Shown piece by piece: positions 10,636-10,706 of a stretch of 12,562 bases of DNA. Source of the stretch: a virus (taxonomy: Duplodnaviria > Heunggongvirae > Uroviricota > Caudoviricetes); IMG/VR virus record IMGVR_UViG_2531839666_000031, one strand, 5' to 3'. Made by a program: the position numbers and the translations under genes. The notes beneath the pieces were generated by a model, which worked only from the letters and a program-made list of their open reading frames with translations, searched no databases and was not told the DNA's origin. Within the stretch, counting starts at the first letter, position 1. Every line of letters starts with the position of its first letter.

Positions 10636-10665
10636 AGGTCCAGATAGCTGTAACTATCTGGACCT
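10636..10665. promoter_or_regulatory. Perfect 12-bp inverted repeat with 6-bp spacer (candidate operator) in the divergent intergenic region
   Basis: AGGTCCAGATAG-ctgtaa-CTATCTGGACCT; a perfect 12-mer palindrome is not expected by chance in 12.5 kb. Confidence 0.4.
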
Positions 10666-10670
10666 CCCTT

Positions 10671-10706
10671 TATGTAGTATCCTGTTGATTTGAAACATAC
10701 TACATA
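10671..10706. promoter_or_regulatory. Perfect 10-bp inverted repeat with 16-bp spacer adjacent to the first palindrome
   Basis: TATGTAGTAT-(16 bp)-ATACTACATA. Confidence 0.3.

Follow-up and report, generated by a model that had tools for sequence, protein, structure and literature searches.

What do two perfect palindromes, lying side by side in the non-coding DNA just upstream of the com-mom operon of a Mu-like prophage, contribute to the phage? The question is raised by a 12,562-nucleotide stretch of IMG/VR virus record IMGVR_UViG_2531839666_000031 (hereafter the window), which corresponds to the right end of a Mu-like prophage, of a type known in Escherichia coli O157:H7 Sakai as Sp18. The first palindrome, P1 (hairpin H1 of the minus strand), has 12-nt arms at 10636-10647 and 10654-10665 (AGGTCCAGATAG and CTATCTGGACCT) separated by a 6-nt spacer; the second, P2 (hairpin H2), has 10-nt arms at 10671-10680 and 10697-10706 (TATGTAGTAT and ATACTACATA) around a 16-nt spacer. 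In both, the arms are 100% complementary. A preliminary description of the window had taken them for operator sites. We provide evidence that they are instead under selection for pairing, and we read them tentatively, at somewhat less than even confidence, as stem-loops which, with a third hairpin (H0), would form the structured 5′ leader of the transcript of a small leftward zinc-ribbon gene.

Palindromes under selection for pairing

Both inverted repeats were recovered by a repeat finder at exactly the positions and sizes first described, and the statistical judgement made at that time, which held the first to be unexpected and the second marginal, was confirmed. Indeed, when perfect stems with loops of 3-20 nt were counted in the window and in 300 dinucleotide-preserving shuffles of it, we observed two stems of at least 12 bp (P1 and one at 7709-7736) against 0.007 per shuffle, and three of at least 10 bp against 0.18 per shuffle. 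P1 is far beyond chance. P2, taken alone, is marginal, and it gains weight because it lies 5 nt from P1 and is kept in relatives. The setting had also been correctly recognised: the palindromes lie in 393 bp of non-coding DNA between the divergent leftward zinc-ribbon open reading frame (ORF; 10533..10363) and com, which starts at 10927 and is followed by mom at 11090. Beyond 11-12-mers expected by chance, the P1 and P2 arms have no further copy in the window or in the 39-kb prophage, and the P1 core finds no second match in the window even when up to 3 mismatches are allowed.

The evidence for pairing comes from about 60 related loci, drawn from viral, metagenome and E. coli collections, in which the palindromes are kept, as the preliminary description had predicted for related prophages. 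Among 20 distinct E. coli-type sequences of the intergenic module, variation is concentrated in a patch comprising P1 and ~11-16 nt on its left (10625..10670, no strand assigned), where 32 of 52 columns are variable and the mean pairwise difference is 0.21, versus ~0.035 in the flanks, an approximately 6-fold excess. We distinguished at least nine P1 alleles, all of which retain a hairpin with a 9-13 bp stem and a 6-nt loop. Allele A, that of the window (AGGTCCAGATAG, loop ctgtaa), has matches of ≥99% in only 7 of 216 E. coli records, and allele B (ACCCAGCATAG, loop ttccag) is carried by Sakai and most others. Allele C (CGGCCCAGAATAG, loop ttcgcg) has one bulged A, and alleles D and E are the two units of a tandem duplication found in several loci. 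Alleles F (GACCCGGTAG, loop ttccac), G (a degenerate unit), H (GCCCGGCAG, loop gtcgca) and I (GACCCAGTAG, loop gtagca) come from lineages whose Mom protein is only ~80% identical. The duplicated unit is ~79 nt long and occurs in tandem in L045, L047, L050, L051, L058, L059, L071, L099 and L154.

Throughout this variation the pairing is upheld by compensatory change, as is expected of a leader stem-loop. G-C pairs become A-T, T-A become C-G and A-T become G-C from one allele to another, and insertions and deletions are symmetric, alleles B and D having gained, and F having lost, one base pair through matching changes in the two arms. In a formal count over ten P1 alleles, 80% of the cells were paired, compared to 29-43% when the 3′ partner was slid, and 8 of 12 pairs had changed on both sides; the covariation score was 0.43 versus 0.18 in shuffles, and none of 500 shuffles reached 0.43. 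P1 and P2 are under selection for pairing, and P1, locally hypervariable yet always foldable, provides a clear natural case of selection acting on structure only.

Both arms of a palindrome can be altered together by quasi-palindrome correction, an established mutational process, and the palindromes could in principle be functionless left-overs of repeat units, maintained as perfect repeats by template switching and rearranged through unequal crossing-over. The single-unit alleles do look chimeric, as if put together from both units of the duplication (B has the flank of unit 1 and the hairpin of unit 2), and in unit 1 the copies have degenerated, showing a mismatch and a bulge. Given unequal crossing-over and these chimera-like alleles, part of the P1 hypervariability may stem from a comparison of paralogous units, which do not fully account for the excess variation of the patch. 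However, hairpins with 6-nt loops persist at ~78% lineage identity and new perfect stems arise (F, H and I); H0 and P2, next to P1, are also kept, with remodelled pairing; and conservation is much higher over the entire ~370-nt non-coding module than in the genes adjoining it. An absence of function is, in our view, very unlikely.

Four hairpins in series

P2 differs from P1 in the way it is conserved. Its stem core, ATGTAGT/ACTACAT, is invariant in the E. coli group and kept in L098 and L099, two of the four diverged lineages (L098, L099, L153 and L154) available for comparison. The loop is of unrelated sequence in these two loci, where it measures 20 and 18 nt, respectively (16 nt in the window), and the outer T-A pair is replaced by C-G in L055. 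L153 has a degraded P2, and L154 one whose right arm has been replaced. The helix is also predicted by RNAalifold.

Two more hairpins lie between P1 and the zinc-ribbon gene. H0, a long imperfect hairpin (10554..10624, minus strand) seen both by the repeat finder and in folds, is located between P1 and the ribosome-binding site of the gene, and is kept with remodelled pairing in all four diverged lineages. The other (10523..10541, minus strand) consists of 8 bp, UCUUUAUC-AUG-GAUAAAGA, and has the zinc-ribbon start codon as its 3-nt loop, with the Shine-Dalgarno (SD) sequence just 5′ of the stem. It is kept in the diverged relatives, and in L098 a C-to-U change retains a U.G pair on the minus strand only. 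This start-codon hairpin resembles a translation-inhibition structure. RNAalifold applied to the five lineages returns four hairpins in series (P2, P1, H0 and the start-codon hairpin), and the folding of 10520-10710, compared to shuffles, gives a z-score of -6.1 for the minus strand and -5.1 for the plus strand. We attempted to choose the transcribed strand from the G.U pairs and obtained a mixed outcome, the terminal P1 units pointing to the plus strand and H0, P2 and the start-codon hairpin to the minus strand: outside P1, four one-sided changes stay G.U on the minus strand only, and two on the plus strand only.

The public records treat this stretch as coding. The RefSeq annotation, made by the Prokaryotic Genome Annotation Pipeline (PGAP), has a frameshifted pseudogene at 10363-10820 on the minus strand, and in the Sakai record a fused 154-aa ORF, ECs_4996, is annotated over the zinc-ribbon gene and the hairpin stretch. 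This long ORF is not conserved, because the module, measured from the zinc-ribbon gene to com, is 374, 375, 380, 381, 383, 388, 460 or 461 nt long according to the locus, and because a 1-nt deletion near 10786 breaks the ORF in five loci; the palindromes therefore lie in non-coding DNA. A coding reading of the 135-aa ORF which crosses the palindromes was rejected on the same grounds, its frame being broken by the deletion and by length differences that are not multiples of 3; this ORF matches only a PHROG (phrog_26524), itself built from these same prophages. Of the long annotated ORF, the final 56 codons alone have support as a gene. The pseudogene, ECs_4996 and phrog_26524 annotations appear to be an artefact of an ORF running through the hairpins, and the public annotation is corrected accordingly: the stretch behaves as a structured non-coding leader, not as a pseudogene or a 154-aa protein.

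A proposed leader for the zinc-ribbon gene

As would be expected if the hairpins belonged to a leader, a predicted promoter lies directly upstream and a gene on the same strand lies downstream, the zinc-ribbon gene being found there in L098, L099 and L153 as well. The predicted promoter is a sigma-70-like site, TTGACT-16-TAGGAT, detected by a scan of the minus strand at 10742..10715; its -10 hexamer ends 8 nt before P2. At an equal distance from P2, the relatives have TTGACT-16-TAAGAT (L098 and L153) or TTGACG-16-TATAAT (L099, whose -10 is nearer to consensus). The lineages keeping both hexamers and the 16-nt spacing are at ~78% identity, and of the 16 spacer positions just 4-8 are common to the window and L098, L099 or L153. 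The 20 E. coli variants all have the same -10, although three adjoining bases vary.

From this promoter the leftward transcript would start ~7 nt below the -10, so that P2 would be its 5′-terminal hairpin; P1 would follow 5 nt after P2, then H0, and ~175 nt from the start would come the SD sequence and the zinc-ribbon start codon, the latter in the loop of the 8-bp hairpin. We infer that this promoter fires, that the transcript starts at about this point, and that the hairpins affect its stability or its translation, in other words that they act post-transcriptionally. Hairpins at the 5′ terminus are known to stabilise E. coli mRNAs, such as that of ompA, against 5′-end-dependent decay, and P2, at the extreme 5′ end, could shield the zinc-ribbon mRNA in the same manner. 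P1 would be a further structural or recognition element in which the pairing and the 6-nt loop alone matter; its sequence would then be free to differ and its unit could be duplicated. The resemblance to ompA-type leaders lies in the predicted hairpin within a few nucleotides of the start, in the long structured leader that precedes the ribosome-binding site, and in the conservation of structure over sequence. Unlike them, the region studied here has three to four hairpins, one of them hypervariable and sometimes duplicated, and a start that is predicted.

The gene in question (10363..10533, minus strand) encodes 56 aa with two CPxC knuckles and is preceded by the SD sequence AAGGAG. Against protein families, its ORF and those of the alternative cassettes described below gave sub-threshold zinc-ribbon matches only, and a large protein search with the zinc-ribbon protein returned near-identical copies only. 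In L098, L099 and L154, however, diverged homologues with ~45% identity have both CxxC motifs and the same ribosome-binding site, which argues that the gene is real and that its linkage to the module is old. In the four diverged lineages, the module always precedes a minus-strand zinc-ribbon homologue; conversely, every lineage with a zinc-ribbon gene has H0 and one or two P1 units upstream of it on the minus strand. Identity among the zinc-ribbon proteins of the E. coli group is 93-100%, although the P1 alleles (A-C) are very different. In L154 the P1 units lie between two minus-strand genes. An extra minus-strand ORF of 53 aa (MKMNTDKQKNEERF...; ~2540-2720 in window orientation) ends right at P1 in this locus; since it takes the place of the leftward promoter and of P2's right arm, the L154 hairpins are intercistronic.

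The linkage is not absolute. The slot 10362-10556, bounded by H0 and by a GC-rich hairpin at which homology breaks (10361), is swappable: twelve loci retain the hairpin module but have, in place of the zinc-ribbon gene, 430-560 nt of unrelated DNA. Replacement cassettes (those of L041, L045 and L060) include a 66-aa plus-strand ORF (MDKNKKQPDTKG...) with no family match. These loci are all very close relatives, and the module without a zinc-ribbon gene may reflect recent history.

Several observations weigh against a leader of the zinc-ribbon transcript. Promoter scans give no more sites in this region than in shuffled sequence, so that the case for the leftward promoter is a comparative one. 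The non-Watson-Crick pairs of P1 alleles B, C and D, which are terminal units next to P2, are G.T on the plus strand and thus A.C on the minus strand. The module persists where the better-supported ORF of the replacing cassette is on the plus strand. A passive structural role leaves the sixfold excess variation of the P1 patch unexplained. Finally, no paper or searchable list of small RNAs (sRNAs) covers the region: our literature search found no paper on the palindromes, a 2026 paper that mentions Sp18 has a different sRNA as its subject, and the covariance models of Rfam 15 gave chance-level matches only, far under the gathering scores.

If the leader is what we propose, the locus defines a compact accessory-gene unit: a predicted promoter, a structured leader, a small zinc-ribbon gene, and a terminator which is probably shared with the neighbouring gene. 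The unit adjoins the toxic com-mom operon, in Mu-like prophages often found in Shiga-toxin-producing E. coli, and its gene can be swapped. The element itself is of an ordinary kind, its hypervariable and sometimes duplicated hairpin being a modest curiosity, and P1 would gain in interest only if it encoded a specificity.

Operator sites and the com-mom control region

Are the palindromes bound instead as double-stranded DNA? The preliminary description expected operators for a dimeric regulator (the zinc-ribbon protein, or host OxyR or Fis), and these, or another phage protein, could control the divergent promoters. The palindromes do lie between divergent genes, P2 would overlap the start of the leftward transcript, and its arm core is conserved in sequence. 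Furthermore, most P1 alleles have an inner ATAG-N6-CTAT, one base short of the ATAG-N7-CTAT unit of OxyR. The OxyR consensus, however, comprises four ATAG/CTAT elements at ~10-bp spacing, and P1 has a single ATAG-N6-CTAT with no second unit, while allele H (GCCCGGCAG) has no ATAG/CTAT at all. The homologue of the GATC/OxyR box of Mu lies elsewhere in the window, at 10850-10893.

More generally, the P1 arms do not behave as half-sites. AGGTCCAGATAG, ACCCAGCATAG, GACCCGGTAG and GCCCGGCAG all occur, and what is kept is the pairing and the 6-nt loop; only the P2 arm core is conserved as sequence. The distance between the arms is not fixed either, since P1 undergoes symmetric 1-bp changes within its would-be half-sites and the P2 spacer is 16, 18 or 20 nt, a change compatible with a hairpin but not with a fixed dimer. 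The alleles have no regulator varying in step with them: across A, B and C the zinc-ribbon protein is near-invariant, and it is missing from some loci that keep the module. Nor does the prophage contain further copies of the palindromes. With arm sequence, arm length and spacing all variable and no co-varying regulator, an operator fits poorly, and we regard this part of the preliminary description as unsupported and highly improbable. A recombinase crossover site of the gix or dif type fares no better: the spacer of Gin/Hin sites is 2 nt, whereas that of P1 is 6 nt, and the window holds no second match to the core.

The control region of com-mom seems, moreover, to be distinct from the palindromes. 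In L075 and L088-L096, com-mom is 97-98% identical to that of the window, but homology does not begin before 10826 and the upstream position is taken by a different divergent gene; the core com-mom control region therefore does not include the palindromes. The 24 mom loci of other genera have no DNA similarity to the module and no comparable hairpin pair upstream of mom, which makes the module specific to this prophage lineage. The mom upstream region of Mu, with its three OxyR-bound GATC sites, its C-protein site and the divergent momP2, is the same neighbourhood and is likewise divergently transcribed, and the GATC box has its homologue in the window (10850-10893). In Mu, by contrast, gin and com are separated by only 94 bp, with no counterpart of P1, P2 or H0.

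The GATC box homologue of the window contains a palindrome of its own, AATCGATCG-N7-CGATCGATT, at 10867-10891, with two GATC sites, and similar palindromes containing GATC are found 230-290 nt upstream of mom in Neptunomonas (L009), Apirhabdus (L017) and Pantoea (L019). Variation is also seen in a further short patch, 10892-10909, which takes three forms, TGCATGAGAAAGGCATCAAC, TTGGTGAGAAAGATATCAAT and TAGGCGAGAAAGATATCAAT; it immediately precedes the ribosome-binding site of com, where Mu has its C-protein site. About 35 nt of the Mu mom promoter core are without counterpart in the window, and the com-mom promoter of this phage was for this reason not located. An attempt to find it through motifs common to other late prophage promoters gave only a weak CCGCCCTGAA match and was dropped.

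Antisense RNA, specificity and termination

If the hairpins act as RNA, the leftward leader is not the only transcript that could contain them. A second sigma-70-like promoter, TTTACA-18-TAGGAT, is predicted by the scan inside H0 on the plus strand (10564..10593). A short RNA made from it would run rightward through P1 and be complementary to the leftward leader; with P1 folded on both strands, the two RNAs would meet as kissing hexaloops, and the variable sequence would set the specificity of each allele. Two promoter-like sites thus face each other with P1 and P2 between them, the 6-nt loop is present in every allele with a variable sequence, and the stems of A, F, H and I are almost pure Watson-Crick, so that both strands fold equally. 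Variation is concentrated in and just left of P1, and in alleles B and D the stem is followed by a usable U-rich tail. All five lineages (L098, L099, L153 and L154 in addition to the E. coli group) retain the plus-strand hexamers, but the sequence around them is conserved and structured anyway, so that their conservation is unspecific and weak evidence.

Further observations speak against such an RNA. The window allele and most others have no U tract to end it, most alleles being without a convincing terminator, and published RNAs do not include one from this stretch: Sp18 has a single listed Hfq-bound RNA, ~1 kb away. We also looked for different alleles in co-resident prophages; in the one genome checked, the two prophage copies carry one and the same allele. 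We consider a cis-antisense RNA unlikely. Its models would be CopA/CopT of R1, RNA I/RNA II of ColE1 and sar of P22, which have in common with P1 a stem-loop with a 5-7-nt loop in the leader of a small gene. As in plasmid and phage antisense modules, there is an opposing promoter-like site in the leader, and variation is concentrated in the stem-loop. Unlike them, most P1 alleles lack a terminator tail, and both the antisense RNA and a difference in specificity between alleles are hypothetical here.

A broader proposition is that P1 is a specificity determinant, whether as such a kissing stem-loop or as an RNA bound by the zinc-ribbon protein in a translational circuit like that of Com. We hold this to be rather improbable. 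Were it true, alleles A-I, sometimes two per prophage, would be separate control classes among co-resident Mu-like prophages, comparable to the copy-control RNAs that define plasmid incompatibility groups, and an RNA control layer would have gone unrecognised in these prophages. Mu Com binds hexaloop hairpins with the motif CC(N)2-3GAG, closed by C-G (PMC6483171). The com-mom mRNA of Mu recalls the present locus in several respects: a small zinc-ribbon gene is located in this part of the phage, one short hairpin has a loop of six residues, and another close by sequesters a start codon (PMC6483171). However, P1 is >100 nt from the start-codon hairpin and lies in a transcript different from that of mom. 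The Com motif is, moreover, absent from every P1 allele on either strand; the loops tested were CUGUAA, UUCCAG, UUCGCG, UUCCAC, GUCGCA, GUAGCA and UUAGCG, with their complements.

P1 could also act on the plus strand as a rightward intrinsic terminator, an insulator halting transcription of the upstream accessory genes before the toxic com-mom. Mom is toxic and heavily guarded in Mu (PMC3378877), which would favour such an insulator. A terminator scan flags P1 on the plus strand, and the G.T pairs of alleles B, C and D suit a plus-strand RNA. Some loci have a plus-strand gene in the neighbouring cassette, and some of these have two tandem units. Like Rho-independent terminators, P1 has a stable, GC-containing stem of 9-13 bp and a short loop, and in alleles B and D it is followed by T-rich sequence (TTTCCCTTTT). 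The difference lies in the tail: in the window and most alleles, the T run is split from the stem by CCC or is missing.

We scored stem and tail together with a re-implementation of a published formula. The window stem is adequate (-19.6 kcal/mol), but its tail (CCCUUUAUGU) is not, and with the CCCTTTATGT that follows the stem the score is -41. Alleles C, E, F, H and I are negative too, and only B and D reach a borderline ~+4. Furthermore, a U tract with a function would be better kept than the stem, and the reverse is observed; a GC hairpin is already present upstream, at 10333-10352; and L154 has no plus-strand gene upstream of its hairpins. A rightward terminator is a weaker explanation than the leader of the zinc-ribbon transcript, and we judge it, too, rather improbable.

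Prophage context

The region 10300-11200 is present in 233 of 5426 complete E. coli genomes, at differing chromosomal sites. In the window, a serine invertase gene (7014-7575) is followed by a DUF6645/SASA esterase-like gene (7675-9714), by DUF1378 and DUF826 (which ends at 10324), by a GC-rich hairpin, CCGGCAGG-tttc-CCTGCCGG (10333..10352), and then by the leftward zinc-ribbon ORF, com and mom; the prophage ends near 11955. The GC hairpin lies between the convergent DUF826 and zinc-ribbon genes and is probably their shared terminator; it has counterparts in L045, L153 and L154.

Further features of these prophages were noted in passing. Compared to the intact copy of strain F7508 (L072), the serine invertase has a 1-nt insertion at 7312, which splits it into two frameshifted ORFs in the window. 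In L067 (E. coli 89-3156, NZ_CP027366.1), a gene annotated as a DNA cytosine methyltransferase follows com in place of mom. The perfect 12-bp palindrome at 7709-7736, CCGGAAACTTTA ctgt TAAAGTTTCCGG, lies in the 5′ coding part of the esterase-like gene, and in the shuffle test its chance improbability equals that of P1. At the 3′ end of the same gene maps, in antisense, EcOnc37 (window ~9577-9647, minus strand; Sakai 5077340-5077410), the Hfq-crosslinked RNA candidate that is the sole one listed for Sp18 (Tree et al. 2014); it is located ~1 kb left of the palindromes, and a terminator-like hairpin lies near it on the minus strand, at 9792-9779.

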